Positions 4,171 through 62,531 of a stretch of DNA of 64,000 bases are shown here, in pieces; within the stretch, counting starts at the first letter, position 1; every line of letters begins with the position of its first letter. A program made the translations under genes and the position numbers. The notes beneath the pieces are model-generated. The model was not told the DNA's origin, ran no database searches, and worked only from the letters and a program-made list of their open reading frames with translations. This DNA is from Candidatus Bathyarchaeota archaeon (GTDB lineage: Archaea; Thermoproteota; Bathyarchaeia; Bathyarchaeales; Bathycorpusculaceae), in assembly GCA_963702095.1 (NCBI GenBank), contig OY969706.1, positions 2,720,001 through 2,784,000 of the forward strand, in the 5' to 3' direction.

Positions 4171-4397
4171 TTGCATTGTGCTGATCATTGCTGTTACTGC
4201 CACGCTAAGAAAGCAAATGATACATGCTTTCACACACACATCCAGTCCGGCCCCTGCATGGAACCATGTACCGCGTGTGGAAAAAAACGCATTTCTCACA
4301 CTGAAACAGACGCTAAAAAACGTTGCAACCACAAAAAGCAACCGCATTCAATTGCAGTCTTGTGGCATGCCGTAAACCGCCACCCCCACATAAAGAC
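4171..4397 (+). repeat. Dispersed 'MEPCTACG' element, copy A
   Basis: CATGGAACCATGTACCGCGTGTGG...TTGTGGC...GCCAC.CCCACATAAAG shared with 10037, 22115 and 47470. Confidence 0.88.
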
Positions 4398-4442
4398 AAA
4401 GATGATCTCAGTCTCTTAGGGGGACGCTGGAAGCAGCAAACC

Positions 4443-4495
4443 GCTGGTTGTTGTTGTGTATGGGGAGTTTTCGGCAACAACTACTAATAAAAAAA
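4443..4495 (+). repeat. Dispersed element, GTT-type palindrome (palindrome part only)
   Basis: GCTGGTTGTTGTTGTGTATGGGGAGTTTTCGGCAACAACTACTAATAAAAAAA; near-identical to 10397-10447 and to the reverse of 13945-13995. Confidence 0.85.
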
Positions 4496-4506
4496 GCCGA
4501 AGGCAG

Positions 4507-10036: not shown

Positions 10037-10256
10037 TTGCATAGTGCTACTCATTGTCTTGTGGAGGAAAAAAGCTGTCGATACATGCCTCTACATTCAC
10101 GCTGTTGCCGCTTCAACATGGACCCATGTATCGCGTGTGGAGAAAATCGCATATCCCACACCATAACAGTTGTTGAAAAACGTTTCATTCGCAAAAAGCA
10201 ACCGCCTTCAATTGCAGTCTTGTGGCACCCACAAATCGCCACACCCACATAAAAGA
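10037..10256 (+). repeat. Dispersed 'MEPCTACG' element, copy B (diverged)
   Basis: CATGGACCCATGTATCGCGTGTGG...CAAAAAGCAACCGCCTTCAATTGCAGTCTTGTGGC. Confidence 0.85.
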
Positions 10257-10319
10257 AAAACAGGTTGCACTTTGGGTAAGGGAGGCTAGTAGAGAAATAG
10301 TGGTTGGCTTGTGTGTCTT

Positions 10320-10450
10320 CTGCTTGCAGAATAGCCACAACTAACCAACAGATGCCTAAACTAGCCAAACCCCAAACAGGCGCCAAAACGCAGTCTGCTG
10401 GTTGTTGTTGTGTATAGGGGTTTTCTGCAACAACTACTAATGAAAAAAGA
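10320..10450 (+). repeat. Dispersed element, GTT-type palindrome copy
   Basis: CTGCTTG head ... GGTTGTTGTTGTGTATAGGGGTTTTCTGCAACAACTACTAATGAAAAAA. Confidence 0.85.
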
Positions 10451-12747: not shown

Positions 12748-13760
12748 CTATTTCCGTTGAGTGGACTCCAGTGAGATATAAGTTACTTGCGGTGCTGCTT
12801 CAGGAACCTCTGTGGGCGGACGAGCAGGTACTCTTAGGCGTATTAAGCGTTTTTCTGTGCCGGGTATGCTGCCTTCTAGTAGGACGTATGGTCCATTGAC
12901 CTCTCCATATCGGACGTAGCCGCCTTTTATGGTGACTTCTTTGCCGTCTTTGCCGATTTTGAGTATGCGTTTGTTGAATTCGATACGTTGGTGATAGCCT
13001 GTTTGTCCTGCGCGTGGTATGCTGTACATGAGGTGGTGGGGGTTCCATGGTGGAGGGTGGCGATGCCGCGTTTGGTTTTTCTGCCTTTGTGCTGGAGTTT
13101 GGTTACGTGCCAGCGTTTAACTGGGCCTTGGAAGCCTTTGCCGACGGTTACGCCGGCTATGTCGATGTATTGGCCTTCTTTGAAGACTTCTTCGGGCGTT
13201 ACTGTTTTGCCCAAGAGTTGTTTGGCGTAGTCGAATTGTTGCTGGGTGTTTCCGCCGCCGATTTGGATTTCCATGGTTTCGGGTTTTTTCTTGGATAGGC
13301 TGGTTTGGCTGGGTTGGGTGGCGGTTATAACTCGGACTAAGTCGGTGTTTTCGAGGTTGTCTTGGACTTTCTGCAGCATGGCGTCTGTGTTAAAGTTTTC
13401 CGGCAGGACCAAAAGTCTGCCCAGCAGTGCCGGCGGTTCTTTCATCCATGCTTCTGTGAGGTTTAAGAGCCCATAGGGTGTTTTCTGGTAAGTGCGTATG
13501 CCACATATGATGATTGGTGGCGTTTCAAGTATGGTTGCTGCCCGCATGACTTCTTTACCGAAGTTTGGTGAACGCTTCCTGTCCTCAATAGTGAAGACAT
13601 AGGTCATACCTGCCTTGTAAGATGTGAATCCTAAAAGCCTAGGAGTTTCAGACTCTATTTTTGGCCAGTAACGAATCCGTGCAGTAGGTTTCTTTGCACG
13701 ATGCCTTGGCAAATAGGCTAGTGAACCATGTTTTGGAGCATGAGTTTTACGATGTCCCAT
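12748..13760 (-). CDS. rpl3: 50S ribosomal protein L3, apparent frameshift near 13052 (likely sequence error)
   Basis: ORF 12927-13760 (PKHGSLAY, YKAGMT, GKGFQGPVKRW) continues in another frame as PWNPHHLMYSIPRAGQTGYHQR. Confidence 0.93.
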
Positions 13761-13944: not shown

Positions 13945-14075
13945 CTTTTTCTATAGTAGTTGTTGCCGAAAACCCCCTATACACAACAACAATCAGAGGC
14001 TTGTGAAAACGATTGTATTTCAACATTGGCGTTTGGTTTACGTTGCAGACTGGTTGTGTAACAAACCACAAGCAG
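13945..14075 (-). repeat. Dispersed element, GTT-type palindrome copy
   Basis: Minus strand: CTGCTTGTGGTTTG head ... GATTGTTGTTGTGTATAGGGGGTTTTCGGCAACAACTACTATAGAAAAA. Confidence 0.85.
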
Positions 14076-14184: not shown

Positions 14185-14391
14185 TTAAATCATGTCAAAA
14201 TGTTCTAGGGCATCCTTTATATTCCCAAATTTTTCAATGGGACAAGGATTAGTTCGCTCTTTTCCCTGTCGGTTTGGTGCTTTCCTCATTTTAATGTTGC
14301 ACTGAGATTTAACGTCGGCAATCCAGCAAGTCTTAGGTATGAAACCATATTTCTGTTTTACATAATCTTGGATTTCTTTGTAAGTAGCCAT
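14185..14391 (-). CDS. Small hypothetical protein (ATYKEI...CP.EK...I.DAL.HF.MI type)
   Basis: 68-aa ORF; from memory resembles a small domain found at the C-terminus of some Firmicute RNA methyltransferases (unverified). Confidence 0.6.
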   Translation of the reverse strand: MATYKEIQDYVKQKYGFIPKTCWIADVKSQCNIKMRKAPNRQGKERTNPCPIEKFGNIKDALEHFDMI

Positions 14392-14405: not shown

Positions 14406-14594
14406 TTAAGGATTATCGTGTTCTAGGTCAAAAAATACAACATTACAAGTCGGGCATATCTTAGCGTAAAGAATTTCATGCTTTGTATGTTTATCACTCG
14501 GTACATGAGCAGATATGAGCATTACTTCTCTAAACTGCGTATAATGTGCTTTATGGCCTAAGGGGCAAGTAATTTCTCGTTGCGGATGAGGCAT
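14406..14594 (-). CDS. Small putative zinc-ribbon protein
   Basis: CPLGH ... CPTC; 62 aa. Confidence 0.5.
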   Translation of the reverse strand: MPHPQREITCPLGHKAHYTQFREVMLISAHVPSDKHTKHEILYAKICPTCNVVFFDLEHDNP

Positions 14595-14693: not shown

Positions 14694-14930
14694 TCACTTT
14701 AGTCGCCTTAGCTCTGCCTCAAACGCCTCAGTGGATATGTTGGTAAACGATTCTTTATGCTTGCCCAGTTCATACATGAAATCCCCGAGCGATAAACCAG
14801 CCAACTTTGTGGCTTGCCCAACAGAGATTTTTTTTTCTTTGTAGAGTATTAGGGCTAAGTAAAGCTTCAAATCGTCTTCGCTAAGGTCATTGACCAAAGC
14901 TTTGGGAATGTTGAGCTCCAATAATTTCAC
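14694..14930 (-). CDS. UPF0175-family (antitoxin-like) protein
   Basis: LALILYKEKKISVGQATKLAGLSLGDF..EL. Confidence 0.8.
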   Translation of the reverse strand: MKLLELNIPKALVNDLSEDDLKLYLALILYKEKKISVGQATKLAGLSLGDFMYELGKHKESFTNISTEAFEAELRRLK

Positions 14931-15001: not shown

Positions 15002-16420
15002 CTAACGAGGGACAACTGCAAGGAAGGGTTCTGGACCCATTTCTGCAGTCGCATAAACTGCCAGTGATATTGCCCAGAATACGTCGTCGTGTGTGCCTTG
15101 TGGGTGGTGGTAGCCTATGGTGCCGTCTTTGTTTAGGCTGTAGCGTTCGACGTTTAGTTCGGTGCAGATTTCGCCCCGGTAAGGTCGCTCCCAATGCAGC
15201 AGTGGGTAGTAGAGTTGGTGGTTTGCCATGCGCTGTTTGAGCAGGCTTGCCATTTCGCTTTTACGGGGCACGCTAAAGTTTACGCCTTCAGCGTTGTGTA
15301 TGCCTGCTGCTTCCATGTCGGCGATGAAGCTTGGGCCTTCCCGTGTGAAGTCCACTCGGATTTTCTCGAACCCGTGCCAGCGGTCCTGCAAGGTTTTGAG
15401 GTAGCCCAATACAGTTGCGTAAATGGTGGGTTGCTGGAAGATTTTGAGGTGACGCAGCAACAACCGCCCATCCACCCGCTCAACTACGGCGAGGGCGGTG
15501 TAGTCCCTGGTCTGCGCCAAATCCAGCCCAACAAAGAATTCGCCTCGGTGCTCAGATTCGGGGTTGAATTCTTGGAGGTCTACGCCACAGGTTGCTTTTG
15601 TGCCGATGCAGTTGGCGATTAGACTTTGCGTTAGCCATACGTCTTGGTCTTCTGCCCATTCCGCCTCCATTTCCCGCCGCCAACGGATTGGGTCATCGCC
15701 CATCTGTGTCTTGATTTTTTGGATTATGCTGGGTTTTAGTGGTCCGTTTGGTTCGGTGGCTTGTTCGACGGTGACGTGGCTGGTTTTGTAGTCGGCGAAG
15801 TCTTTGTGGGTAAACATTTTGTAGAAGACGCTGTCGGTGTGCCATGGTGTGCTTGTGCAGACGAATTTGCCGTTTGTGGTGCCCAATGTGTAGAGGATGG
15901 CGTCGTAGAGTTCTTGGTCGTTGGCGACGAAGTTGAATTCGTCAGCGTAGACCACGTGCAGGGTGGGTCCGCGGATGGTTTCGGGGTTGTTTGGGAAGGC
16001 TTCGATGCTGCTGCCGTTTTGGAAGTGGATTTGGGTGCGCTGGGGCACAAAAACCAGTCTCCTAGGAAGCTTATGGGAAAGCGAGCCTATGCGGCTAAGG
16101 ATGCGTTTGGTTTGCCGCCAAGACGGACCAACTAAACCGATGGCGCTATCTGGGTGGGTGGTTGCATACCAGAGCAGAAGGGCAGCTACGATGAAGCTCT
16201 TGCCACTTTGCCGACTCCACCGGGCCGCCGTAAACTGGTTTTCAACGAATAGTTTGATGAACTCTTCTTGGTAGGCAAAGGGTTTGAAGCCCAAGATTTC
16301 TCTGCAGAAAACTGCGGGGTCCTCGCTGAGGTCCACAGTTTTCTCCAGTGCCAACCCTTCGGCTAGTAGGTCACTGTTCTGGACTTTTTGCCATGTCTGC
16401 TGGAACTGGTTGGGACGCAT
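15002..16420 (-). CDS. Phage-type terminase large subunit
   Basis: PFAYQ, Walker A SRQSGKS, TIRG, Walker B VVYADEF, coupling motif STP, nuclease GLDLA..RD.TA and HDD; start placed at ATG 16420. Confidence 0.9.
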   Translation of the reverse strand: MRPNQFQQTWQKVQNSDLLAEGLALEKTVDLSEDPAVFCREILGFKPFAYQEEFIKLFVENQFTAARWSRQSGKSFIVAALLLWYATTHPDSAIGLVGPSWRQTKRILSRIGSLSHKLPRRLVFVPQRTQIHFQNGSSIEAFPNNPETIRGPTLHVVYADEFNFVANDQELYDAILYTLGTTNGKFVCTSTPWHTDSVFYKMFTHKDFADYKTSHVTVEQATEPNGPLKPSIIQKIKTQMGDDPIRWRREMEAEWAEDQDVWLTQSLIANCIGTKATCGVDLQEFNPESEHRGEFFVGLDLAQTRDYTALAVVERVDGRLLLRHLKIFQQPTIYATVLGYLKTLQDRWHGFEKIRVDFTREGPSFIADMEAAGIHNAEGVNFSVPRKSEMASLLKQRMANHQLYYPLLHWERPYRGEICTELNVERYSLNKDGTIGYHHPQGTHDDVFWAISLAVYATAEMGPEPFLAVVPR

Positions 16421-16837
16421 TGTTCTTGCTTTCGAGGAGCGCGGCATATTTTGCCTCCATATCGTTTAGTTTGGCTTCTACTTCTCGGTAGTTGAGGTAG
16501 TCGGAGAGGATTTCTTTGTAGGCGCGGGCTAGGGTGGCGACGACTTGCAGTCGCTGAACCTCCACTTTACTGAGCCCGGGGCAGAGGCTGCTTCCAATGC
16601 GCCTGCCAATTTTTTGAGTGTTTCCTCTACGCTAGGCAACTCGGCAGGCAGGGGCAAGGTGGCGGTGGTTACGTGTCCGCTTGGTACCAATCCGAGGCGC
16701 CCGCACTTAACAAGGACTGCAGGGGCTGTTCTTCGAAGGGTTAATGCTATTGCGTCTATGGATTTGTTGGCTTCTACGAGTTTTTTGAGTTGGACTTCCT
16801 CTTCAACTGTCCAAGGTAAACCTCTTGTCATAATCAA
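16371..16837 (-). CDS. HTH/coiled-coil protein, candidate small terminase (frameshift near 16575)
   Basis: WTVEEEVQLKKLV..SIDAIA..L.RT HTH; one extra G in CCGGGCTC joins both ORFs (PGLSKVEVQRLQ); overlaps the terminase start. Confidence 0.65.
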
Positions 16838-16924
16838 GACCTAAAGGGACTGGAGGGCAGAACTGCTTTTGAACTATTTTGCGCTTCAAAAAGGCGATTT
16901 GTTTAATGCTTTTTTAAAGGTTGA

Positions 16925-16987
16925 TTGCTTTTTTGTTTTGGGCTTGCAGTGGCGTTGCAGAAGGGTTGTGGCGTATTCTACAAGCAG
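16925..16987 (-). repeat. Dispersed element, head half only
   Basis: TTGCTTTTTTGTTTTGGGCTTGCAGTGGCGTTGCAG...ACAAGCAG aligns with 43231-43293. Confidence 0.8.
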
Positions 16988-16995
16988 AGGGGGAC

Positions 16996-17490
16996 TTAGC
17001 AAACACGTTCAATAACCTGATCCGCAGCAGCCTCGTCACTGAGACCCGCCACATCTATGGTTACATCGGCATATCTTCGGTAAAAAGGCAACCTCTCCAA
17101 AAAAAGCTGCTCCAGCCCCTTCTCTTTCAACCCAACAATTCCCCTGCCCGAAAAATCCGCAGTGCGCTTTTTGATTTCCTCCAAAGAAGCATCCAAAAAC
17201 ACCACCACAGAGATGCTCTTTAGAAACCCCATTGCCTTCTCCGAATACACGGAACTGCCTCCAGAAGAAATAACCGAATCACTTACCGTCCCTATGCCGA
17301 GTATAGCGTTCTCTTCTAAGTCCAGGAACCTTTCATTTCCTAAACAGTCGATTAAATCCTGCAGTTTCCTGTTAGTAGCTTCCTCAATAATCCTGTCAAT
17401 GTCAATAAAGCCAAAATTCAACCGTTCCGACAAAAGCAGACCTATATGACTCTTACCAACACCAGACATACCAATGAGGGTTATATTCAT
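16996..17490 (-). CDS. aroK: Shikimate kinase, bacterial NMP-kinase type
   Basis: LIGMSGVGKS P-loop, DID, SSGGS, ERLPFY..YAD. Confidence 0.85.
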   Translation of the reverse strand: MNITLIGMSGVGKSHIGLLLSERLNFGFIDIDRIIEEATNRKLQDLIDCLGNERFLDLEENAILGIGTVSDSVISSGGSSVYSEKAMGFLKSISVVVFLDASLEEIKKRTADFSGRGIVGLKEKGLEQLFLERLPFYRRYADVTIDVAGLSDEAAADQVIERVC

Positions 17491-17754
17491 AATGACAACA
17501 TATTGTTGTTGCAGCTATTTTCGTTTTATGGGTTGAAGTTTAAGGTTTGCGTAAAAAGAGGAAACAACCTCAGCCGCCAATCCACCAGCCACACCGAAAA
17601 ACCCCAAATTCCTCCAGCAAACCGCCGCTCCCCAACTTTTGCTGCTGCTAAGCCCCTGTTTTCGGGTTTGGTCGGGACAAACTTATAAACTTAGAGTGCA
17701 GTGATATGCTAATATAACTGTGCTGTATGCAATAGAGCAGGGAAGAGAGGTTAG

Positions 17755-18510
17755 ATGTTTAAGCTTAAAGTATCTGACGCTAAATTACTCCGTGACATGG
17801 CAACCGCCATCTCAATTCTCGTGGATGAAGCCACCTTTAAAATTGAGCCCGACGGGTTGAAACTCCGCGCGATGGATCCAAGCCGCGTGGCCATGATCGA
17901 TTTCGAATGGCCAAAAACCATATTCCAAGAATACGAAGCCAACCAACCCACAAAGGTCTGCCTCAACATAAGCGAATTACTCAAACTCCTAAAACGCGCC
18001 GGCAAAGACGAAGCCGTCGAACTCAGCCTCGACGACAAAACCGGACGCCTCCTAATCACAATCACAGGCAAATACGCCCGCAACTTCACCATGCCCACCC
18101 TCGAAGCCAGCGAAGAAGAGGTGCCTACACCAAAAATCAGCTTCAACGTCAAAGCCAAAACCACCACCCAAGGCCTGAGCCAAGCAATCGAAGACGCCCA
18201 ACTCGTCAGCGACCACGTCCGCATCGAAGCTGAACCAGAAAAAATGACCCTATCGGCATCGGGCGACCTGATGGGTGCAACCATTACACTGGTGAAAGGC
18301 AACGACACACTCCTCGACTTAGAAGTCAAAGAAAACGCCAAAGCAACCTTCAGCCTAAGCTACCTTTCAGAAATCATCAAAGCAGCCGCCGCAACCAGTG
18401 ACATAGCCACCTTAGAGTTCTCCACTGATATGCCGGTTAGAATCGATTTTCAACAGGCAAAAGAGGGAAAACTGACCTTCTTCTTGGCGCCCCGCATCGA
18501 AACCGAGTAA
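17755..18510 (+). CDS. pcn: DNA polymerase sliding clamp PCNA
   Basis: LRAMDPSRVAMID, FFLAPRIE. Confidence 0.97.
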   Translation: MFKLKVSDAKLLRDMATAISILVDEATFKIEPDGLKLRAMDPSRVAMIDFEWPKTIFQEYEANQPTKVCLNISELLKLLKRAGKDEAVELSLDDKTGRLLITITGKYARNFTMPTLEASEEEVPTPKISFNVKAKTTTQGLSQAIEDAQLVSDHVRIEAEPEKMTLSASGDLMGATITLVKGNDTLLDLEVKENAKATFSLSYLSEIIKAAAATSDIATLEFSTDMPVRIDFQQAKEGKLTFFLAPRIETE

Positions 18511-18525
18511 GCGCTGGCATCCAAG

Positions 18526-19557
18526 ATGGAGTTGGCGCCTGCCACACTGTCGATCGAGGACTACGCCAAATACCCATTTCTTAAATTGGCTTCTAAACAA
18601 ATCCAAAACCTTCAACTTACCATCCAAAGCATAGTGGAAGACCGCTTTGTACTGGAACGTGCCCAGAAAAGAGTTGAAAACGCCATCCTCAACCTAACCG
18701 TCGGCGAATTAGACATCGATAAACGCAAAGAAATCTCTTCTTACGCCGCCTCGTTGATTTTGGTCATTGCAACAAAGCAGTCGTGGATAAAAAAAAGGTA
18801 CGCTTTAGCAGTTGCCAAAACAGCTTACAGTCAGATGCTGGGGGAGAAAGCGGCTAAGGAAAAAGTTTTTTTGATCGCCAAAGACTTCGACTGGAACATA
18901 AGCGACGGCAAACCCTACAAAGATTTCCGCGTGAGCTTTGCGTTTTTCTTGAAGAACGCGGCGCATCTCCATAACTACGAATGGAAACTGGTTAACCAAA
19001 TCATCGACAGAGGCATGGTGTACCTAAACAAGGACAAAGTCGCTCGGTTGCTACAGGAGGAAATTAAGAACCGAGTGGAGAAACGCCTCGAAGTGCCTGA
19101 ACTAAGAAACCTGCCTGAAGACATCACTCTTGTCGCCAATGGATTAACTGAGTTAGCGCAGGGGATTATGGGACAGGAAATCGAGGAAATGCCTAAAAAT
19201 GTGGTTCAAGCGGCGTTTCCACCCTGCATAAACGCGTTGTACGCGGATATGGCTTCGAGTCATCATCTCTCGCACATCGGGCGCTTCACGCTTATCAGCT
19301 TTTTAGTAAACATCGGCATGTCTGGGGAAGCCATGAATGACATGTTTAAAACCTTCTCTGATTACAACGAACGTTTAACCCGCTACCAAATCGAGCACAT
19401 CGCGGGTGAACGGGGTTCAGGCACAAAATACACGCCTCCACAATGTTCAGTTCTTCAAACACATGGCGTATGCAAAGGCAGAGATGACTTGTGCCGTCGA
19501 ATCTATCATCCTCTAAAGTATTATTTAATCAAGCAGAAGGAGAAAACTTCGGTGTAA
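18526..19557 (+). CDS. priL: DNA primase large subunit
   Basis: AKYPFL, FPPCI, H..RF, YQIEHIAG, YTPPQC Fe-S cluster motifs. Confidence 0.95.
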   Translation: MELAPATLSIEDYAKYPFLKLASKQIQNLQLTIQSIVEDRFVLERAQKRVENAILNLTVGELDIDKRKEISSYAASLILVIATKQSWIKKRYALAVAKTAYSQMLGEKAAKEKVFLIAKDFDWNISDGKPYKDFRVSFAFFLKNAAHLHNYEWKLVNQIIDRGMVYLNKDKVARLLQEEIKNRVEKRLEVPELRNLPEDITLVANGLTELAQGIMGQEIEEMPKNVVQAAFPPCINALYADMASSHHLSHIGRFTLISFLVNIGMSGEAMNDMFKTFSDYNERLTRYQIEHIAGERGSGTKYTPPQCSVLQTHGVCKGRDDLCRRIYHPLKYYLIKQKEKTSV

Positions 19558-19613
19558 GGGCATGTGTCAATGTTTATTAATTTATGTGAACTTAATTGTG
19601 GTGAGTCGTTTTA

Positions 19614-20360
19614 ATGGGCAATCAAATAGTTGGAAACACTCTTGCAGATTCTGAAATAGGAGTTATCCTGCCAACATATGGGGAAGCAGCTAACATTGGC
19701 AAATTGATAGATGACATCGAAGATCTCGGCCTTAATCCATCGATTTTAGTTATCGATGACTCAAGCCCCGATGGAACAGCTGAAATCGTGTTGGAAAAAC
19801 AGAAAAAACACCCCAATGTCTTGCTATATAGGCGACCCAAAAAATCTGGGTTAGGCACGGCGATCACGGATGGATTTAGGTTTTTCTTGGCGGAGAATAA
19901 ACCTCCGAAATATGTGTTTACTATGGACGCTGACTATTCCCATGACCCTCAGGATTTGCCGAAACTCCTGGCAGTAATGAAAGAATGCGATTGCGGAATA
20001 GTAATCGGCAGCAGGTACAGCAAAGGCGGGCAGATTGAGGGTTGGCCTCTTAGCAGAAAAATCATAAGTAAAACCGCCAACGCCATCGCCCGGGCTTCGT
20101 TGGGGTTGGAGCTAAACGATTGCACTGCTGGGTACCGCTGTTACTCCACTGCGTTTCTGAGAGAAGTCATCGGTAACCTGCACAGTACAACCTATGAGAT
20201 TCAGATTGAAACGGTGCGGCAGGCTTCTCTTAGGCACTTCCAAGTTAAGGAAACCCCGGTCTTGTTTGTTAACCGTAAACAGGGTAAATCCAAGTTGACG
20301 TGGACGGAAATCAAAAGTTTTCTATCATACACGTTTAAAGCGGTTTGGCGCTCGGATTAG
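19614..20360 (+). CDS. Polyprenol monophosphomannose synthase (GT2, DPM1-like)
   Basis: ILPTY.EA.NI, IDDSSPDGT, MDADYSHDP, GSRY, R..GKSKL. Confidence 0.9.
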   Translation: MGNQIVGNTLADSEIGVILPTYGEAANIGKLIDDIEDLGLNPSILVIDDSSPDGTAEIVLEKQKKHPNVLLYRRPKKSGLGTAITDGFRFFLAENKPPKYVFTMDADYSHDPQDLPKLLAVMKECDCGIVIGSRYSKGGQIEGWPLSRKIISKTANAIARASLGLELNDCTAGYRCYSTAFLREVIGNLHSTTYEIQIETVRQASLRHFQVKETPVLFVNRKQGKSKLTWTEIKSFLSYTFKAVWRSD

Positions 20361-20420
20361 TTTTATATTAGGATTAAATATTGCTTGTTCATTTTACGAG
20401 TAGGGAACGGCAGGTTTACG

Positions 20421-22088
20421 ATGCGGCTTGGCAAGGCTGAGATTGTACTTTTAGTAGCTGTATCAATCCTAGCGGTCAGCATAACGCTTGGAGCCGCCAG
20501 CCGATTCCCATTGGCGACTGGCACTGACCGATCCTGCGTGATTATCGATGACACTTTCCATTTATCTCCCAATGAAGTGTGGAGGCAGGGGTTGGGAGCG
20601 TTTGTCGGCGGCGAAAACATCACCGTCTCAGTTTCAAGCTCAGAGAGTTTTAGCAAAAATTTTTCTGTAGTTGCCTATAACGGTTTGCGGTTCAACACCA
20701 CTGAACCGTCTTTTACGTATACTTTCACTGCGGGAGCAGACTACTACGAAGCCACCTTCAATACGAGCGCAGCCCAAGCAGGCACTGTCCACTTAGAGGT
20801 TTCTGTCCTCAAACCCGAGGTTGTTTACCCATCCAGCTGGTTGAGTATGCCAGCAAGAATCCTGTTTTTCTTAAGCGTCGCCGCTGTAATGTTGATTGTC
20901 TTAAAAACCAAGCTGTTAAAGCAGTCTACATTGGCTGCTAAACCGACTTTGCCTTCTATTAACAAAATCAACCGCCATCGGCTTTTAGGGTTTGTTGTTG
21001 TGTCGTTGGTTGTTTGGTTTGTAATCTTAGCTTTTAACCCTAACCCGTTGGGCACCTTTGAAAACTGGTACACTGACCATGTCAGGCACCCCTACGTTTC
21101 AAGCCTTTTCTTAAAGGATGGCTTCTCAGTTTTCAATCAACCCCTCGGCACCCTCGCCAGCCAAGATAACTCCACTTTTATGTATGTAACTTGGCCTGAG
21201 ATGCCGCATCTCTACCCGTTGGGCAGCGTTGCTTTGTTTTTGCCGTTTGGGGTGCTCTTGCAGAACGGTGTTGATCCCTTGTTGGTTTTTAAGCTTGAAA
21301 TCATGGTTTTCTTGGTGTTTGCGCATGTTTGCCTCTACTTTTTCTTGAAGTATCTTTTCAAGAAGGATATGCATCTTTTTTGGCGTCTGGTTGGGCTCTA
21401 CATCATCTATGTGTCGCTGGTCATCTATGCTGCCGATGGCATGTTTGATTCAGTCGCATTTTTCTTTTCTTTGATGGCGGTAACAATGTTTCTTATGGAA
21501 CGCTATGACGGCTTTTTCTTGTTGATGATGACGTCTATACTGTTTAAGTATCAAGCGGGCATTTTCCTCTTACCGTTCATTTTGGTGGGGGTGGTTATGC
21601 TCTTGCAGAACAACAAGCTGTCCAGCCTTGCCAAAAATAAAAAGGTCATATTGGGAATTGCCTTTGCGGGCATCAGCGGTTCTACAGCTTTTCTAAGTTT
21701 ACCCTACTTGATTGAGACTAGGCCTGAACTTATAATGAATGGCATTCACGCTTTCATACCAAACGCCCAGATTTCTTGGACACTGCAATCCACTGCAGTC
21801 CTCATCACTTTGGCTGGCACCTTAATCTACGCCGCTTACATGCTAAACAAAAACAGCTTCCTCTCCCTGTCAGCGATTTTCCTTTTGCTTCCAAGCTTCA
21901 CTTTGCCTTATTTCCAGAACTGGTATCTGCCTTTCCTGTTCGTCTACATACTGGTTCCACAAAAAAGAAAGGAGTTGGAGGCAACGATGATTTGGCTTAT
22001 CTTCATGATAGTGGTACTCTCCTTCGGCGGGAGTGCATTTAATCCCTTGGGAATTATCCAGCATTTCCAATCGATGATCAACATGTAA
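20421..22088 (+). CDS. Multi-pass membrane protein, possible GT-C glycosyltransferase
   Basis: About 12 hydrophobic segments, loop WYTDH, YPLG, GMFDS, KYQ, QNWYL; follows a GT2 gene. Confidence 0.55.
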   Translation: MRLGKAEIVLLVAVSILAVSITLGAASRFPLATGTDRSCVIIDDTFHLSPNEVWRQGLGAFVGGENITVSVSSSESFSKNFSVVAYNGLRFNTTEPSFTYTFTAGADYYEATFNTSAAQAGTVHLEVSVLKPEVVYPSSWLSMPARILFFLSVAAVMLIVLKTKLLKQSTLAAKPTLPSINKINRHRLLGFVVVSLVVWFVILAFNPNPLGTFENWYTDHVRHPYVSSLFLKDGFSVFNQPLGTLASQDNSTFMYVTWPEMPHLYPLGSVALFLPFGVLLQNGVDPLLVFKLEIMVFLVFAHVCLYFFLKYLFKKDMHLFWRLVGLYIIYVSLVIYAADGMFDSVAFFFSLMAVTMFLMERYDGFFLLMMTSILFKYQAGIFLLPFILVGVVMLLQNNKLSSLAKNKKVILGIAFAGISGSTAFLSLPYLIETRPELIMNGIHAFIPNAQISWTLQSTAVLITLAGTLIYAAYMLNKNSFLSLSAIFLLLPSFTLPYFQNWYLPFLFVYILVPQKRKELEATMIWLIFMIVVLSFGGSAFNPLGIIQHFQSMINM

Positions 22089-22114
22089 GCTTCTCAGGAA
22101 GAGGCGTCATTCGG

Positions 22115-22310
22115 TTTGTCTCTTTATGTGGGTGTGGCGTTTTATGGGATGCCACAAGACAGCAATTGAATGCGGTTGCTTTTTGTGGTTGCATTGTTTT
22201 TCTTTGTCTGTTTCGGTGTGGCAAAGGCGTTTTCTTCCACACGCGGTACATGGCTCCATGCAGGGGCCGGACTGGATGTGTGTGTGAAACCATGTATAGT
22301 TTGCTTTTGT
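22115..22310 (-). repeat. Dispersed 'MEPCTACG' element, copy C
   Basis: Minus strand TTTCACACACACATCCAGTCCGGCCCCTGCATGGAGCCATGTACCGCGTGTGG, nearly identical to copy A; ORF 22107-22259 of 50 aa. Confidence 0.9.
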
Positions 22311-22480
22311 GTTGACATGAACGGATTTATCAGCCGATTGTTAACAGAGAAAATTATCGCCAGTTACCAGAAACCGACTTTGTGGATCAGGAAGAGCTAG
22401 GTTTATGGTTTGTTGTTGGTTATAGTTAAATTGGGGAAAAACCACATAACCACACAGTCAAATGTAGGGAGCGTGGGGAT

Positions 22481-23716
22481 ATGGCGGAGACTTCTAGAGA
22501 ATTCGTTTACCAGAAATTCAGCGAGTTCTACAAAGACCCCGCCAACGCCGTGCCAGCTCCGCCTTTACCTCACCAGCGGGAATTCGGCTACCTTACCTTC
22601 AAAGAAAAATTCATGGTGCGACACCGCCGATTTGAGCAGATCGCCAACTTCCGAGTTGTCCTCGCCCAAACTGTTCCATCAGATGTTTACCACAGCTGCG
22701 CTTACTATGAAAACCCCGATTTTGACATGGACAAGAAAGGCTGGATAGGCAGCGACGTAGTGTTTGACATAGACGCAGACCACATTCCTACTTCATGCAA
22801 CAAAATCCATGATGAGTTCCGCTGTGTCAAATGCGAGTTCGAGGGCAGAGGCATCACCCCCGAAGAGTGTCCCTGCTGTGGCGGCACAAAGTTTGTAACT
22901 AAAATTTGGGCTTGTGACCTCTGTATCCAAGCAGCCAGAGAAGAAGCCACCAAACTCGTGGATATGTTGGAGAACGATTTTGGGTTTTCTCAGCCTGAGA
23001 TAAGGGTGTTCTTTTCGGGGCACCGTGGCTACCACATCCACATAGAGAACGAGGCGGTGCTGTCGCTTGATGCTATGGCAAGAAAAGAAATCGTCGACTA
23101 CGTCACGGGCTTAGGTGTAGCGTTCCTAGACAAAGAGGCTAAAGAAGAGAGAAACCGACGAGGAAAAGCCAAGCCAAAAAAGTTTATTCTCCACAATTTT
23201 GGCTGGAACAGGCGCATTAAGAGGGGCATGGAGAGTTTTCTGTTAAACGCAACCAAAGAGGACCTCAAAGCTGTTGGGTTAAAAAATAAGGCACTACTCG
23301 ACAACCGAGAAGTGGTGATTAGACGCGCTATCAACGAGGGCATGTGGGATAGCATACCAGGCGTCAGCGACCAAACCTGGCTAAAACTGGCGGAGATCGC
23401 AAGGGAGAACCAGGCGGCAAAAATCGACACGGTCGTCACCACCGATATTCACCGTTTAATCCGTATGAACGGCTCCTTGCATGGCAAAACGGGGCTCAAA
23501 AAAGTCGAGTTTAAAGCGAGTGAACTGCAAACTTTTGACCCCTTCACTGGAGCAGTAGCTTTTAAAAAGGGCAAGGTGAAAGTGTTGGTGTCTGACGCGC
23601 CAGAGTTCAGGATGAGTGGGGAAACGTTGGGTCCATACAAGCATCAAACCGTTGAGTTACCGACAGCTGCGGCGGTTATGCTTATCTGTAAAAAAAGAGC
23701 CGAGGTGCTGCCCTAA
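22481..23716 (+). CDS. priS: DNA primase small (catalytic) subunit
   Basis: QREFG, VFDIDADH, FSGHRGYH, ID.VVT.DIHRLIR. Confidence 0.96.
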   Translation: MAETSREFVYQKFSEFYKDPANAVPAPPLPHQREFGYLTFKEKFMVRHRRFEQIANFRVVLAQTVPSDVYHSCAYYENPDFDMDKKGWIGSDVVFDIDADHIPTSCNKIHDEFRCVKCEFEGRGITPEECPCCGGTKFVTKIWACDLCIQAAREEATKLVDMLENDFGFSQPEIRVFFSGHRGYHIHIENEAVLSLDAMARKEIVDYVTGLGVAFLDKEAKEERNRRGKAKPKKFILHNFGWNRRIKRGMESFLLNATKEDLKAVGLKNKALLDNREVVIRRAINEGMWDSIPGVSDQTWLKLAEIARENQAAKIDTVVTTDIHRLIRMNGSLHGKTGLKKVEFKASELQTFDPFTGAVAFKKGKVKVLVSDAPEFRMSGETLGPYKHQTVELPTAAAVMLICKKRAEVLP

Positions 23717-24340
23717 GTGTATGAGCAACTGTATGCGGCTTGGCGCAGAGAAATCGACGACTCCACACTGGGAGGATTGCCGCCTGACTTTTACAGCAAA
23801 ATCACAGCTTACCTGGCACGTATAAGAGAAGACAACAAGGCGCTGGATAAGAAATCGGTTAAAGTTAGCCTCTTAGAACATGAAACAAAAAACGTTGAGC
23901 GCATGCTTGGTGAACTGCTCGATTTAAGATACAAAAAAATACTCAAAACGATTACGCGACTGCACAAGGCACCCATAGAGCTTTTGTCTTTGGAAGAAGC
24001 CAAGATGTGCGAGGGCTTTGTGGGCTTCTCCAACACATACCAACAGTTCGCCAAGAACCTTCTGCAGGGTGAACAGACGCAGGCACCGATAACTGTGACG
24101 ATACTTCAGCCGCCCACATCCGTGTCCCCTGTTTTGGGCGCCAAAGAAGAGTATAAACCACCGACACATGTCACCCATAAACGCTTAACCCTACGATTCA
24201 TCAAGAACATCCCCGCCATCATGGGAGCAGACATGAAGTCCTACGGACCCTTCGCAGTTGAAGACGTAGCTTCGTTGCCGGCGTTGAACGCGCAGATTTT
24301 GGTTAAGCAGGGATTGGCGGTTTTGGTTGAGGTTTCCTGA
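23717..24340 (+). CDS. GINS complex subunit (Gins51-type)
   Basis: LPPDFY, R..KI, C-terminal B-domain GADMKSYGPF..EDVA.LP..NA; follows priS. Confidence 0.85.
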   Translation: MYEQLYAAWRREIDDSTLGGLPPDFYSKITAYLARIREDNKALDKKSVKVSLLEHETKNVERMLGELLDLRYKKILKTITRLHKAPIELLSLEEAKMCEGFVGFSNTYQQFAKNLLQGEQTQAPITVTILQPPTSVSPVLGAKEEYKPPTHVTHKRLTLRFIKNIPAIMGADMKSYGPFAVEDVASLPALNAQILVKQGLAVLVEVS

Positions 24341-25358
24341 TTTTCTGCCAAGCTGTGTTGGCGGCGATGATGATTAGGGGGTAGGAAACGATCCATGCCA
24401 TCGCATAGAGGGGTCCATAGTAGTAGTGGAAATCTTGTACTTGGAGGGAGTTGGCGCCGAATTGTGCACCGATTGTGAATATGGTTGCTATGCGGAAGAT
24501 GTTGATTAGGTAGGTGACTGCGGCGCCGACAGCGAAGTAGCCGATTTTTGCCTTCCAAGAAATATGCATCTGCTTCAAAAATAGCAATGCGACGGCGGTG
24601 AATATGAGGAGGCTCTCGATGCCTGCGCAGGGCCACGCTATCGCGAATTTAGCGGAGCCCAAAGAGCCTGTAACGTCAAGGGTGGGCATGCCTGATTCGA
24701 AGCCTGAGACAACCGTGTAACCCATCATGCCCAAAACGCCGGCGGCAAGATACGCTGTGGTAGGCACGAGCAGTTGGAAAGGCGTGAATTCGCCTTGAGG
24801 GTACAGGTTGTCGATGGTGTAGAGTAAACCAACCAAAGCCACAAAGAGGGCGGGCAGAGCAAACCCAGTTAACCCTTTTTTGCCAAACGCGGTGAAAACG
24901 ATTAGGAGGAAGAGACCGCAGAAAACGAGGTATTCAACGGCTAAGGGCATGGAATCGTAGAAGGCGACGCCGCTCTGCAGCGACCAGCTTGCGATGGCTG
25001 CGTTTAACCCCGAAAATTCCCAAGCAACATAGAGGCTTGGAAGCAACAGCACAATTGCGTAGAGGGCGGCTTGGGTTTTTTCGTGGAGGTTTATTTTTGT
25101 TTTTATGGTTTCCCAGCTGAGGATGAACTCTAAAGCGACCAGCCAGAGGAAAAACAGCAGAAAAGTCCTGCCTTTCCACATGAGTTGAAACGAGTCCTGT
25201 GTTGATACGTTGAGGTAGGGGTCCATGGGGTTTAGGGTGTAGAGCACCGCCAATGGAACTGCGAAGGCAACGAGCGGCAGGGTTTTTATTAGAATTTGCG
25301 TCATGCGGTGGGCAGCTTCGTTTTTCACGCCGAACACAACTATACCCCATTGCTTCAC
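24303..25358 (-). CDS. Archaeosortase/exosortase-family transpeptidase
   Basis: WKGR.F..FF.W, IAWPCAG, NIFRI, FH: Cys/Arg/His triad in a multi-TM protein. Confidence 0.85.
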   Translation of the reverse strand: MKQWGIVVFGVKNEAAHRMTQILIKTLPLVAFAVPLAVLYTLNPMDPYLNVSTQDSFQLMWKGRTFLLFFLWLVALEFILSWETIKTKINLHEKTQAALYAIVLLLPSLYVAWEFSGLNAAIASWSLQSGVAFYDSMPLAVEYLVFCGLFLLIVFTAFGKKGLTGFALPALFVALVGLLYTIDNLYPQGEFTPFQLLVPTTAYLAAGVLGMMGYTVVSGFESGMPTLDVTGSLGSAKFAIAWPCAGIESLLIFTAVALLFLKQMHISWKAKIGYFAVGAAVTYLINIFRIATIFTIGAQFGANSLQVQDFHYYYGPLYAMAWIVSYPLIIIAANTAWQKIRKPQPKPPIPA

Positions 25359-25422
25359 GATTTAAAAAAGGATGTGCCAAAGCGTTAACGGCAACATCAT
25401 TAACAAAAGGAGGAAGGTTGGT

Positions 25423-34174: not shown

Positions 34175-35938
34175 CTAAATTGTTTTACGTCGTCTCTCAT
34201 GGGTAACAGCTACTAACACAGCAACAACTATTCCCACCACAACTGCGGCAACAGCCACCCCGACGATTATCTGCGTTAAACTGATCTGCTGCTGCCCCTG
34301 TGACATTTCAGGCGTCGCTGTTGCGCTCGGCAAATTTGCGGTAAAGACTATTGATATTTGATGGCTACTGAAATGCGCCGTGTACCAAACGTAGTAGTTA
34401 ACAGCGTCTTGGCTGTAATCCTGCGGTTGGACTGGTTGACCATCGCTTAAAACTGTGATAGAGTCGCCGTAGGGGATTGCTGTTTTTGGGATTGTAATGT
34501 TGCTAAACCCTGTGGTTCCACTTGGGCCGGTTAAGGCGAAGGTTAACTGGGTGGTTTGGGCTGATTGGTTTGTGGCTATTTGGGCGTTTGATATCTGTGA
34601 AGCAGTTATGTTTCCAGAGGTTATCAGTTCCAATGCTGTTCCTGTGTCTGTGGTCACTTGTATGGTTGTAGATGGCGGCGATGTAGGTTTGGGGGTCGGC
34701 GCTAGCGTTGGATTAGGAGATGACCCTTGCGTAGGCGCACTTGTAGGGGAGGTTGTTGGAGTTGGAGAAGGGCTCGGTCTAGGGGTGGGTGCAGGCGCGT
34801 CGGGGGAACCGATAAATGCGTAAAGCTTCTCAAATGAAGCGGCGTAGACTATGCCGTTTGCAATGGCAGGCGATGTGCCAACATGCATTCCTGTGTCATA
34901 GCTCCAAATCATCCACCCGTCGTTAGCATCTAAACAATAAGTCTTGTTATCCATCGACCCAATGTAGACTTTGCCGTCGGCAACAGCGGGAGCAGACCCC
35001 ATAATTTCGCCACTGGTGGTATAGATCCAGACCACCTGGCCCGTTCCTGCGTCTAGACAGTATGTTTTGTGGTCATACGAACCAAAGTAAACCTTACCGT
35101 TTGCCAATGCAGCCGCTCCCGAAATTCTGCCGCCAGTACCTCGGCTCCATAGAAAAGACCCTGTAGAGGCATCTAAACAATAAAAGTAGCTGTCGGCTGA
35201 TCCAATGTAGATTTTTCCGTTTGAGATAGTGGGTGAATTATCCACAAAAAGACCAGTTCTAAAACTCCATATCTGTGCACCGTTGCTAGCATTTAATGCA
35301 TAGAAGGTGTAATCATGCGATCCAAAGTAGACGATTCCGTTTGCAACGACAGGGGAGGACCAAACAAAGCTTCCGGTTGTGTAATTCCAAATCAGGTTTC
35401 CGGTGGCTGCGTCCAAGCAGTACATGTTACAATCAGGTGAACCTATGTATACCCTATCGTTGGCAACAGCCGGACATGCCTCTATTATGCCTCCGCCTGT
35501 GGTATAGTTCCATATCAAATCACCGTTGGAAGAATTAAAGCAGTAGACATCAGTCAATAATCCAATGTATAACCTATCATTAAGAATGGTAGGGATAGAA
35601 CCTTCCATACCATTTGATTTATTCGTATTAATTATCCAAACAGGAGCGCCCGTGAAGGCATCAAAGCAGTAAAGCAACCCTGTTATTGACCCAATGAAGA
35701 CACGCCCATTCACCACGACTGGGCTTGAGTAAGCATTATTCGTAGTGTAATTCCACAGGGTAACGTTTGTGTAGGGTGCGTTTGAACTTGAATATCCCGA
35801 ATGAGCCGCATCATGCTGAAGGGTAGGCCAATCATCGTTTACTTCGGTGCCATCCACCCCAAAATCAAAGACAAATAGCGTTGCAGCTGCGACCAGAAAA
35901 ATAAGCGCAGAAACATAAATCGAGTTATACATTTTCAT
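34175..35938 (-). CDS. Secreted PQQ-like beta-propeller protein with Pro/Thr linker and C-terminal TM
   Basis: Signal peptide, repeated SSP.V..G.VY.GS.D..YCLDA.TG..W, PTP linker, HFSSH, TM plus RRRK. Confidence 0.9.
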   Translation of the reverse strand: MKMYNSIYVSALIFLVAAATLFVFDFGVDGTEVNDDWPTLQHDAAHSGYSSSNAPYTNVTLWNYTTNNAYSSPVVVNGRVFIGSITGLLYCFDAFTGAPVWIINTNKSNGMEGSIPTILNDRLYIGLLTDVYCFNSSNGDLIWNYTTGGGIIEACPAVANDRVYIGSPDCNMYCLDAATGNLIWNYTTGSFVWSSPVVANGIVYFGSHDYTFYALNASNGAQIWSFRTGLFVDNSPTISNGKIYIGSADSYFYCLDASTGSFLWSRGTGGRISGAAALANGKVYFGSYDHKTYCLDAGTGQVVWIYTTSGEIMGSAPAVADGKVYIGSMDNKTYCLDANDGWMIWSYDTGMHVGTSPAIANGIVYAASFEKLYAFIGSPDAPAPTPRPSPSPTPTTSPTSAPTQGSSPNPTLAPTPKPTSPPSTTIQVTTDTGTALELITSGNITASQISNAQIATNQSAQTTQLTFALTGPSGTTGFSNITIPKTAIPYGDSITVLSDGQPVQPQDYSQDAVNYYVWYTAHFSSHQISIVFTANLPSATATPEMSQGQQQISLTQIIVGVAVAAVVVGIVVAVLVAVTHERRRKTI

Positions 35939-36078
35939 AGTGCTCTACTGCCTTAAGTCATTTTTATTCTATGGGGATAAGCTTTCTTGTCAAGGTTTCT
36001 TGACTTAAGGCAAAGGGAGTTCTTGTGCTCAGCTAAGAAGCTCTCCCCTCTTTGCCAGTAGTTCAGGGTTCTTTGGTT

Positions 36079-36232
36079 CTGCTTGTGGTTTGCGCCTCAA
36101 TCAACCTGCAACCCATCTCTGTTGCAGAACGCAAAACACAGCCGTTCACCAAGCCCCTAAGAAGATGATGAGCAAGGGCGGCACTCTCTTCTTCTAATAT
36201 AGAAAAAACAAAAAAGCCCAAATTTGAGCTAC
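36079..36232 (+). repeat. Dispersed element, GAA-type palindrome copy
   Basis: CTGCTTGTGGTTTG ... GAAGATGATGAGCAAGGGCGGCACTCTCTTCTTCTAATATAGAAAAAA. Confidence 0.88.
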
Positions 36233-42994: not shown

Positions 42995-43159
42995 ACACTC
43001 ACCACAGTAAGGGTTCTATTCAATGCAATTCTCAACAACACCCATATATAGATTAAGGTGCCCAAGCAAATATCGAGGACACTTTTCTCTGCTGAGTTAG
43101 AGATATAGGGCTAAGACAACATGCTTTTAGGCCCTTGTAGACATCTATAGAGTTAGCGT

Positions 43160-43293
43160 TTGTTTTTTCTAGTGTTAGATGAAGGCAGAGTGCTCCTTAC
43201 TCATCATCTTCCAGCGGATTTTGCTGCGGCTTGCTTTTTGGGTTTGGGCTTGCAGCGGCGTTGCAGGTTGGTTATGGCTGATTCCACAAGCAG
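43160..43293 (-). repeat. Dispersed element, GAA-type palindrome copy
   Basis: Minus strand CTGCTTGTGG ... GAAGATGATGAGTAAGGAGCACTCTGCCTTCATCTAACACTAGAAAAAA. Confidence 0.85.
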
Positions 43294-47345: not shown

Positions 47346-47469
47346 TCCCATGATTATCGCTGTCCGAAAGTGTTGTGATACATGCCTAATACTGGCTTAA
47401 ACTAATTAATCTTATGCCAAAACTTCGCAATTGCCAACTGCAAAAGTAGGCGAAGAAACTACCGCGTCT

Positions 47470-47675
47470 TTTCTCTTTATGTGGGTGTGGCGGTTTGTGG
47501 GGGACCACAAGACTGCATAGGAGGACTGTTGCTTTTCTTGGTTGCAACGTTTTTTGGCGTCTGTTTCGGTGTAGCATATGCGATTTCCTCCACACGCGGT
47601 ACATGGTTCCATGTTGAGTTGGTCACGGTGTGGATGTGGAAGCATGTTGGAATAGCATAAAAAAGATGTATAGTT
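47470..47675 (-). repeat. Dispersed 'MEPCTACG' element, copy D
   Basis: Minus strand CATGGAACCATGTACCGCGTGTGG...GAAACAGACGCCAAAAAACGTTGCAACC...CGCCACACCCACATAAAG. Confidence 0.87.
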
Positions 47676-56777: not shown

Positions 56778-56821
56778 CGTGAACTAGGTAGGCGTGGTTT
56801 CCCACGTTAAAGGTACCCCTT

Positions 56822-56976
56822 CTACTTGTAAAATCAGCCTCAACCAGCCTACAGCCCGTTTCCGTTACAGAACACAAAACACAGCCGCCCACCAAGCCCA
56901 TAGGAAGAAGATGAGTAAGGGCAACACTCTCTTCTTCTAACACTAGAAAAACAAAAAAGCCCAAATTTTGATCTAC
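56822..56976 (+). repeat. Dispersed element, GAA-type palindrome copy
   Basis: 56869-56951 is an exact inverted match to 62319-62401. Confidence 0.92.
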
Positions 56977-62249: not shown

Positions 62250-62317
62250 CTTTATAACTGCTTCCCAAGCGATTCACAGAAAAGCTGGTATTGTGAACTG
62301 TAGCATTTTCGTTTTCT

Positions 62318-62455
62318 TTTTTTCTAGTGTTAGAAGAAGAGAGTGTTGCCCTTACTCATCTTCTTCCTATGGGCTTGGTGGGCGGCTGTGTTTTGTGTTC
62401 TACACTAGAAAGGGGTTGCTGGCTGGTTGAGGAGCAAACCACAAGCAGAACCAAA
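62318..62455 (-). repeat. Dispersed element, GAA-type palindrome copy
   Basis: Minus strand CTGCTTGTGGTTTG head; 83 bp identical to 56869-56951. Confidence 0.92.
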
Positions 62456-62531
62456 AAACCTCTCAATTATTATACCGACAGGTTACTAAAGGGTTAAATC
62501 TGCTGTCACGCATTCAAATCGGGGAACGCAT

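Follow-up and report, generated by a model that had tools for sequence, protein, structure and literature searches.

A gene for the large subunit of a terminase (TerL) and a helix-turn-helix (HTH) gene directly upstream of it were found as a solitary pair in a stretch of 64,000 nucleotides (nt) from a Candidatus Bathyarchaeota archaeon (GenBank assembly GCA_963702095.1, contig OY969706.1, positions 2,720,001 to 2,784,000; this whole stretch is referred to as the window). No portal, capsid, or integrase gene was detected within ±10 kb of the pair (for integrase, one tyrosine-integrase family was the query and other recombinase families were not searched). The solitary state was a clade-wide property that recurred among relatives, and we hold with moderate confidence that the pair is a vertically inherited, exapted (domesticated) terminase module kept by purifying selection, and not debris. 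A sequence-only reading of this DNA had offered a domesticated packaging module, qualified as gene transfer agent (GTA)-like, a satellite, or a self-mobile two-gene element in preference to a decaying provirus; the first of these was supported, without its qualifier.

Large terminase subunit and its upstream partner

The coordinates of the pair are as follows.

15002-16447, minus strand: TerL, 481 amino acids (aa), intact; T4 gp17-type ATPase at the N-terminus and probable RNase H-like nuclease at the C-terminus (profile matches and conserved motifs)
16529-16837, minus strand: N-terminal part (102 aa) of a partner resembling the terminase small subunit (TerS); Myb/GcrA-like three-helix HTH, linker, and conserved LPSVEETLKKLA helix; frame lost near 16580
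16371-16565, minus strand: C-terminal part (64 aa) of the TerS-like partner; long coiled-coil helix in a -1-shifted frame; 77-nt overlap with the start of TerL

Judged from its sequence, the 481-aa protein is a large terminase of the T4 gp17 type. Significant matches were obtained with Pfam Terminase_6N (5.4e-19), PHROG phrog_2 "terminase large subunit" (3.4e-40, residues 52-466), and the ATPase domain of T4 gp17 in the PDB (2.7e-13, residues 58-213); the score against Pfam Terminase_6C was just below the cut-off: 22.2 and 22.6 bits, respectively. Walker A (SRQSGKS), Walker B (VVYADE), the C-motif (TST), GLDLA (containing the first nuclease Asp), and HDD, named after what we take to be their counterparts in T4 gp17, were all present, confirming the earlier claim of an intact open reading frame (ORF) with all ATPase and nuclease motifs. 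These five catalytic motifs were conserved over 75 relatives: the ATPase motifs RQxGK[ST], hhhh[DE]E, and [ST]ST in every TerL group, with GLD and HDD invariant. The key residues were retained in 16/16, 15/15, and 4/4 members of the three clades of solitary TerL described below.

The HTH protein consists of a Myb/GcrA-like three-helix HTH (3.9e-4 against the profile of the GcrA DNA-binding domain), a conserved helix, and a coiled-coil helix of ~50 residues. The AlphaFold model of the orthologue from G008 (G and L numbers denote relatives' genomes and loci, respectively) had a mean predicted local distance difference test score of 81.5, with three short helices followed by helices at 68-82 and 89-138. 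A homologue of the HTH gene, partial in some cases, adjoined TerL in 81 of the 83 cellular loci analyzed. The upstream HTH/coiled-coil gene in a terS-terL layout, as the sequence-only reading described it, was real and overlapped TerL; on the other hand, it was not one intact ORF, and the frameshift had been missed. Compared with the orthologues of G005 and G008, the gene lacks one nucleotide within a run of C/G near 16580 and is thereby split; downstream of the missing base it still shares 86% identity with its G005 counterpart. In rpl3, an essential gene 3 kb away, the loss of a single nucleotide near 13050 (compared with G005 and G007) likewise leaves two overlapping ORFs. Because rpl3 has the same kind of deletion, the frameshift of the HTH gene is probably an assembly error. 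The rpl3 defect suggests that indel errors remain in the assembly, a single contig.

Solitary state and conserved position

The genome containing the window (2.94 Mb, one contig, completeness of 90%) is most closely related to Bathyarchaeia metagenome-assembled genomes (MAGs) labelled Bathy-6, and encodes three intact paralogous HTH-TerL pairs (copy A, in the window, and copies B and C) in addition to two TerL fragments. Copies A, B, and C were classified together with 80 loci from contigs of relatives' genomes (83 cellular loci), each of which was searched, up to ±10 kb, with 16 non-terminase proteins of copies B and C. These queries found zero homologues within ±10 kb of the window TerL. A locus was called solo when it had no homologue of these 16 genes of one provirus: 41 of the 83 loci were solo in this sense, 25 had structural genes, and 17 had only ABC-ATPase, cl13, or cl12. 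At least 5 kb were available on both sides in 27 of the 41 solo loci.

A TerL tree of 80 rows was rooted with the provirus copy of G052; L064, L084, L101, and L121 were left out (ORF outside 440-560 aa). The window TerL fell into a 16-row clade (referred to as S1) with a Shimodaira-Hasegawa-like approximate likelihood ratio test value of 99, and 15 of these rows were solo. The exception was L061, a 4.8-kb contig with an ORF resembling a major capsid protein (MCP) beside TerL, and the sister row of the clade, L062, was provirus-linked. Another two solo clades (15 and 4 rows) were nested among linked clades, and at least seven changes between the solo and linked states were needed on the tree (26 well-flanked solos versus 42 linked rows). 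Among the best 80 contigs of IMG/VR, 59 were structural, 21 partial, and 0 solo, a contrast that is partly built in, as virus callers would miss a solo locus; identity to the window TerL was 69% at most.

The position of the pair was also conserved, with orthologues in the same neighborhood in at least five other genomes. The G005 locus comprises rpl3, two unrelated ORFs, TerL (91% identity), and HTH; in G007, a TerL broken into three pieces (93%) is accompanied by HTH and by the kinase gene known from the window. In L051, L052, and L053 (TerL 84-86%), the pair lies beside a PCNA-PriL-glycosyltransferase-574aa-411aa-181aa-c16 segment that is inverted in the window. This block (PCNA-PriL-glycosyltransferase-membrane protein-411aa-207aa-351aa, ~17700-25400 in the window) was also inverted when compared with two other genomes and with G027 and G008, and one breakpoint of the inversion lay at the terminase island. 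Locus L052 spans 2,096,776-2,118,224 of CP170178.1. TerL was not found upstream of rpl3 in G027, G014, G030, or G008. In each of the other solo clades, three to five genomes had conserved flanks. What lies between TerL and its neighbors varied, and often included AbrB/PIN, UPF0175, or methylase genes.

Selection and age

The ratio of nonsynonymous to synonymous substitution rates (dN/dS) of TerL, estimated by NG86, was low in all solo groups: 0.063-0.099 between the window and six orthologues, 0.057-0.073 among the fully syntenic L051-53, 0.03-0.07 among syntenic members of the second solo clade (L108, L109, L113, L114, and L115), and 0.048-0.080 in the third. The dN of TerL among L051-53 (0.033-0.038) was below those of PriL, the glycosyltransferase, p411 (411 aa), and a 567-aa membrane protein. 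The HTH gene evolved faster than TerL, with dN/dS of 0.10-0.28 and 61-70% identity to the window protein, and with dN/dS of 0.11-0.15 in syntenic sets. The dS of TerL was similar to those of flanking core genes: 0.81 for TerL, 0.82 for ribosomal protein L2, 0.84 for S19, and 0.98 for L4 between the window and G005; 1.09 for TerL and 1.30 for PCNA between the window and L051; and 0.45-0.59 and 0.43-0.63, respectively, among L051-53. By this parity, the solo state predates the split of these species. The solitary TerL is as constrained as PCNA or ribosomal proteins.

These results bear on the earlier view that the locus is not a decaying provirus, against which a single copy under relaxed selection, together with a full provirus at this site in relatives, would have counted. 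As described above, the genome has three intact paralogues and two fragments, and the dN/dS of TerL was 0.06-0.10; none of the relatives examined had a full provirus at the site, where G005 and G007 share the solitary pair with the window. The earlier view was upheld on each of these points.

Provirus-like paralogues and viral origin

TerL of copy B (1,090,399-1,091,847), 66% identical to the window TerL, closes a complete-looking, virus-like head-tail cluster of ~19 kb (1088946-1108216), which is encoded on one strand except for two inserted ORFs. The genes are arranged in the order scaffold-like, cement-like, MCP, winged HTH, 419-aa unassigned protein, Mu Gp36-like, 451-aa protein, tail tube, HK97 gp10-like, 691-aa tail protein, cl13, HTH, TerL, and ABC-ATPase/GNAT protein. 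MCP matched phrog_267 (1.1e-12), and the tail tube matched Phage_tube_2 (5e-10); the HK97 gp10-like match was weak (below the Pfam cut-off), as were the cement and scaffold matches. The 419-aa protein was considered as a portal and not called as such, with zero family matches. The terminase of this cluster stands at its tail end, and the ABC-ATPase/GNAT fusion next to it is TerL-linked in most viral contigs of the family. No integrase homologue was found within the 40 kb inspected around the cluster, which could itself be an immobilized, GTA-like element.

Copy C retains intact cl13, cl12, HTH, and TerL, with the downstream ABC-ATPase only in fragments. Scraps of other provirus genes (scaffold/cement, tail, MCP, and ABC) and the two TerL scraps are scattered over the genome, and this decay of other provirus genes to fragments was counted in favor of selective retention of the window pair. 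In the genus, MCP was found in 28 of the 61 genomes.

A tailed provirus, BATPV1, has been published on JAAKEZ010000002 (PMC11705971, in the excerpt available), and our locus L078, on the record JAAKEZ010000002.1, encodes a TerL with 65% identity to that of the window. A 46.8-kb siphovirus-like provirus of a Bathy-6 cMAG is described as "common in Bathyarchaeia" in the accessible part of PMC11697101. Viral ancestry is shown by these relationships: the window pair is derived from packaging genes of siphovirus-like (BATPV1-like) proviruses of Bathyarchaeia.

Points against a domesticated module

Several observations weigh against this assignment. First, unrelated viral genes flanking a solo locus would escape our 16 queries. 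Second, TerL was split or truncated in 2 of the 18 members of the window clade (L064 of G007, 104+383 aa; and L084, 388 aa). In the second solo clade, with 15 members, L122 and L124 have a split TerL, and the HTH gene was in two pieces in the L108/L113 group; several of these records may share the indel problem of the window assembly. In the same L108/L113 group, the dN/dS of the HTH gene was 0.3-1.2 over 71 codons. The HTH gene of the window is itself frameshifted in the assembly, and the deletion, if real, would mean that the pair is breaking here. Third, low dN/dS alone is no proof of selection at the host level, since virus-linked TerL copies were equally low (0.033-0.077); for this reason, the selection argument rests on the monophyly of the solos and on synteny.

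Fourth, L048 and L049, with TerL 91-93% identical to that of the window, share no neighbors with it within 10 kb, and, within one syntenic region, the sites of the pair in L048 and L059 differ by ~6 kb. Because of these differences in neighbors and sites, some movement or differential loss of the pair in the past is evident. Fifth, the HTH protein fits a TerS in position and architecture, with no match to TerS in Pfam, PHROG-TerS, or NCBIfam, and its model had no whole-protein match in the PDB by Foldseek at E≤0.001: only the 45-residue GcrA-like HTH fitted. Finally, neither TerL nor the HTH protein is covered by a PADLOC model.

Alternative explanations

A satellite or cryptic integrated element (NitKor-E1-like, or like a minimal phage-inducible chromosomal island (PICI)), whose own TerS and TerL redirect helper capsids to package the island, is an unlikely explanation. 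It would account for the different sites of the pair in L048 and L059, each in an insert of ~5 kb with homology limited to the two genes and with different cargo (a methylase/Mrr fusion and AbrB in L048, and a glycosyltransferase in L059). Several genomes also have two S1 paralogues, helper-type proviruses are common in the genus, and NitKor-E1, with TerS-TerL, VapBC, and an integrase, provides a precedent in the available account (PMC6563490). Toxin-antitoxin (TA)-like genes were present within 5 kb in 10 of the 41 solos versus 1 of the 42 linked loci, a weak point, as the queries came from solo loci and kin are non-independent.

The mobility tests argued in the opposite direction. A tyrosine integrase was found beside full clusters in G052 and G014 (Phage_integrase, 2.8e-22 for the G052 copy), whereas, with the one tyrosine-integrase family as the query, the flanks of the window pair had no homologue and only 1 of the 41 solos had one nearby, a 67-aa fragment. 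No flanking inverted repeats or target-site duplications were found at the island besides the common dispersed repeat (see below), and no replication gene was seen in it. Paralogues within genomes were old, with 69-73% nucleotide identity confined to the coding region (G005 and G022). The sole near-identical pair of copies, in G015 (95.6% over ~6.5 kb including flanks), is probably a strain variant or segmental duplicate. The ends of a mobile unit were undefinable from paralogues: the identity in G015 runs past the pair, and the matches in G005 and G022 stop at the coding region. The window and five other genomes also share the same neighborhood with host-like dS. A currently mobile satellite is unsupported, but earlier movement is evident. 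For the self-mobile two-gene element suggested from sequence alone, there was likewise no recombinase (by the tyrosine-integrase query), no inverted or target-site repeats, and no recent copies in its favor.

It is quite unlikely that the pair is a neutral remnant, that is, the last piece of a decayed provirus with TerL intact by chance or recency. Copy C is such a remnant, with TerL, HTH, cl12, and cl13 intact beside fragments of ABC-ATPase; the frameshift of the window HTH gene, the split TerL of some clade members, and the MCP-like ORF or tail/ABC genes still present alongside the basal L061 and L062 also agree with decay. On the other hand, the codon data are difficult to square with a neutral relic: dN/dS was 0.06-0.10 at dS of 0.45-1.1 among solitary syntenic orthologues, and dS parity with core genes places the solo state before the species split. 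All five catalytic motifs were kept throughout the three solo clades, and the frameshift is probably an artefact in view of the deletion in rpl3.

A split gene transfer agent, in which the solitary terminase serves structural genes elsewhere (for example at 1.089-1.108 Mb) and packs host DNA, is very unlikely: vertical inheritance and purifying selection are hallmarks of GTAs, and the head-tail cluster without an integrase homologue in the 40 kb inspected recalls immobilized thaumarchaeal clusters discussed as possible GTAs (in the accessible parts of PMC6563490 and PMC5797428), but this cluster already includes an intact HTH-TerL pair, in at least G022 (95% complete) two TerL matches (69-73% identity to the window) occur without any MCP match, G026 has only MCP scraps, and solo HTH proteins are only 35-40% identical to viral HTH proteins. 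The "GTA-like" qualifier of the earlier note was accordingly not shown, the genome's only capsid cluster having a TerL of its own.

Possible function and comparison with known systems

According to the domesticated-module reading, linkage to capsid, tail, and integrase genes would have been lost in an ancestor of several Bathy-6 species, and the pair would since have been inherited vertically at a fixed chromosomal neighborhood under strong purifying selection. With no capsid genes beside it, a terminase is limited to acting in trans or on DNA alone. In the mechanism that we propose, the HTH protein would recognize a DNA site and recruit TerL, which would then cut and translocate DNA; without capsid genes of its own, the holoenzyme would have to use, in trans, the procapsids of BATPV-like viruses that infect the cell or reside in it. 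As a specific mechanism this remains doubtful. Its preferred outcome would be packaging interference, by which the host is protected, and the second option would be transduction, with host DNA packaged into these capsids. We favor, as an inference, a pair that interferes with or hijacks the packaging of related viruses, because such viruses are common in the genus (the MCP count above), because the specificity subunit evolves faster than the motor, and because the pair sits among TA and restriction-modification genes.

A terminase is taken as a strict hallmark of tailed viruses, and no description of conserved solitary terminases was found in the literature on Bathyarchaeia, on archaeal terminases, or on exapted/standalone terminases. 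We propose, as a plausible though tentative generalization, that Bathyarchaeia took a TerS-like + TerL holoenzyme from siphoviruses at least three separate times and kept it as a chromosomal gene pair without a capsid, where it would act against viruses, by sabotaging or hijacking packaging into incoming capsids, or serve as a DNA-export motor under host control, in what would be the first exaptation of a lone terminase.

Phage satellites (PICIs and relatives) are chromosomal islands that have terminase-subunit genes and no capsid genes, and can in principle use helper capsids. They are mobile, with integrase, replication, and regulation modules, and classical PICIs carry TerS and are not known to carry TerL. 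The window pair resembles them as terminase genes without capsid genes on a chromosome, and differs in that an integrase (by the tyrosine-integrase query), replication and regulation modules, and attachment-site repeats were not found. GTAs of the RcGTA type are, similar to the window pair, virus-derived, vertically inherited, and under purifying selection; however, they keep the whole head-tail cluster including the terminase, whereas the window keeps the terminase only.

The closest parallel is NitKor-E1 of Ca. Nitrosopumilus koreensis AR1, in which TerS directly upstream of TerL are the only Caudoviricetes-like genes, on an archaeal chromosome and with toxin-antitoxin neighbors, and whose TerS-TerL function was called "enigmatic" by the authors in the available excerpt (Krupovic et al. 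2019, PMC6563490). In that account, NitKor-E1 stands as a single element, carries a tyrosine integrase, and is interpreted as a likely relic, whereas the window pair had no homologue of the integrase queried. Compared by description only, the solo state of the window type is clade-wide across species, its position is conserved, and its selection has been measured. The tailed proviruses of Bathyarchaeia (BATPV1 and that of the Bathy-6 cMAG, within the accessible texts) have the same TerL/HTH family as the window; in contrast to the window pair, their TerL is linked to cl13, cl12, ABC-ATPase/GNAT, tail, and head genes.

The one earlier solitary archaeal TerS-TerL, described in the available account as a probable relic, is thus joined by a recurrent and positionally stable state, monophyletic within lineages, that constitutes a testable class. 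If it is true that the pair acts on the capsids of related viruses, this would be a new route of virus-gene exaptation, for defense or gene transfer. The host class comprises abundant uncultured archaea, for which enrichment cultures now exist. Provirus callers based on TerL will over-call viruses in these genomes.

Neighboring genes and the dispersed repeat

Other features of the locus are listed below.

12748-13760: rpl3, of the operon rpl3-rpl4-rpl23-rpl2
13946-14075, plus strand: dispersed repeat, full copy of ~130 nt, upstream of rpl3
14185-14391, minus strand: 68-aa ORF of the viral family phrog_27283 of unknown function (PHROG match, 8.6e-13)
14406-14594, minus strand: 62-aa ORF with two Cys pairs; possible zinc ribbon (read from the residues)
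14694-14930, minus strand: UPF0175 antitoxin-like small ORF, 78 aa (Pfam UPF0175, 4.4e-12; PADLOC candidate PDC-S70, 2.7e-8)
16925-16987, plus strand: related repeat, partial copy (3' module), between the HTH gene and the kinase gene
16996-17490, minus strand: kinase of the shikimate-kinase fold, 164 aa; an accessory gene that accompanies the pair only in the window and in G007
17755-18510, plus strand: PCNA, followed by PriL, beyond the kinase gene

Between 13.7 and 17.5 kb, the order of transcription on the minus strand is the kinase, the HTH gene, TerL, the three small ORFs, the repeat, and rpl3-rpl4-rpl23-rpl2. The small ORFs of 78, 62, and 68 aa are variable neighbors outside the conserved pair: the UPF0175-like ORF was not found at the orthologous G005 locus, and the 62-aa ORF had zero family matches in Pfam, PHROG, PADLOC, and NCBIfam. 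The setting given in the sequence-only reading, with the pair and three small ORFs between rpl3 and a kinase gene followed by PCNA, held, except for the label "aroK" of the kinase. Its best NCBIfam match was a Desulfovibrio-type homoserine kinase of the shikimate-kinase fold, 147.9 bits against a cut-off of 197, and this type of kinase was present in only 9 of the 61 genomes of the genus.

The dispersed repeat belongs to a family of ~130-190 nt with more than 50 copies in the genome, and its 34-nt end module (GTTGCAG...CCACAAGCAG) occurs 109 times. Further copies in the window are located at 4210-4496, 10083-10449, 22116-22307, 36067-36225, 43159-43293, 47456-47647, 56820-56968, and 62312-62460. 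The copy upstream of rpl3 was found at the same place in G005, and in 6 of 13 loci belonging to the TerL clade of the window, a copy on the opposite strand follows the TerL stop at a distance of 0.9-3.6 kb. The claim that same-orientation copies bound the island was weak, since 16925-16987 is only a partial copy of 63 nt (62% identical to that at 13946-14075) and the module is common. The sole direct repeat flanking the island was this end module (35 nt, 74% identity). An Rfam search of the whole window gave 0 matches, and the repeat corresponds to no described RNA family; its plus strand folded slightly better than shuffled sequences (z -2.3), and the minus strand did not.

Large ORFs with no Pfam family stand beside solitary TerL in L053 (11486-14434, 982 aa) and L050 (2819-4828, 324 + 343 aa), and are candidate defense or cargo genes. 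Elsewhere in the window, five tandem repeats of ~120 nt (65-71% identical over 65 nt) were found at 34926-35473, probably a region coding for a repeat domain.

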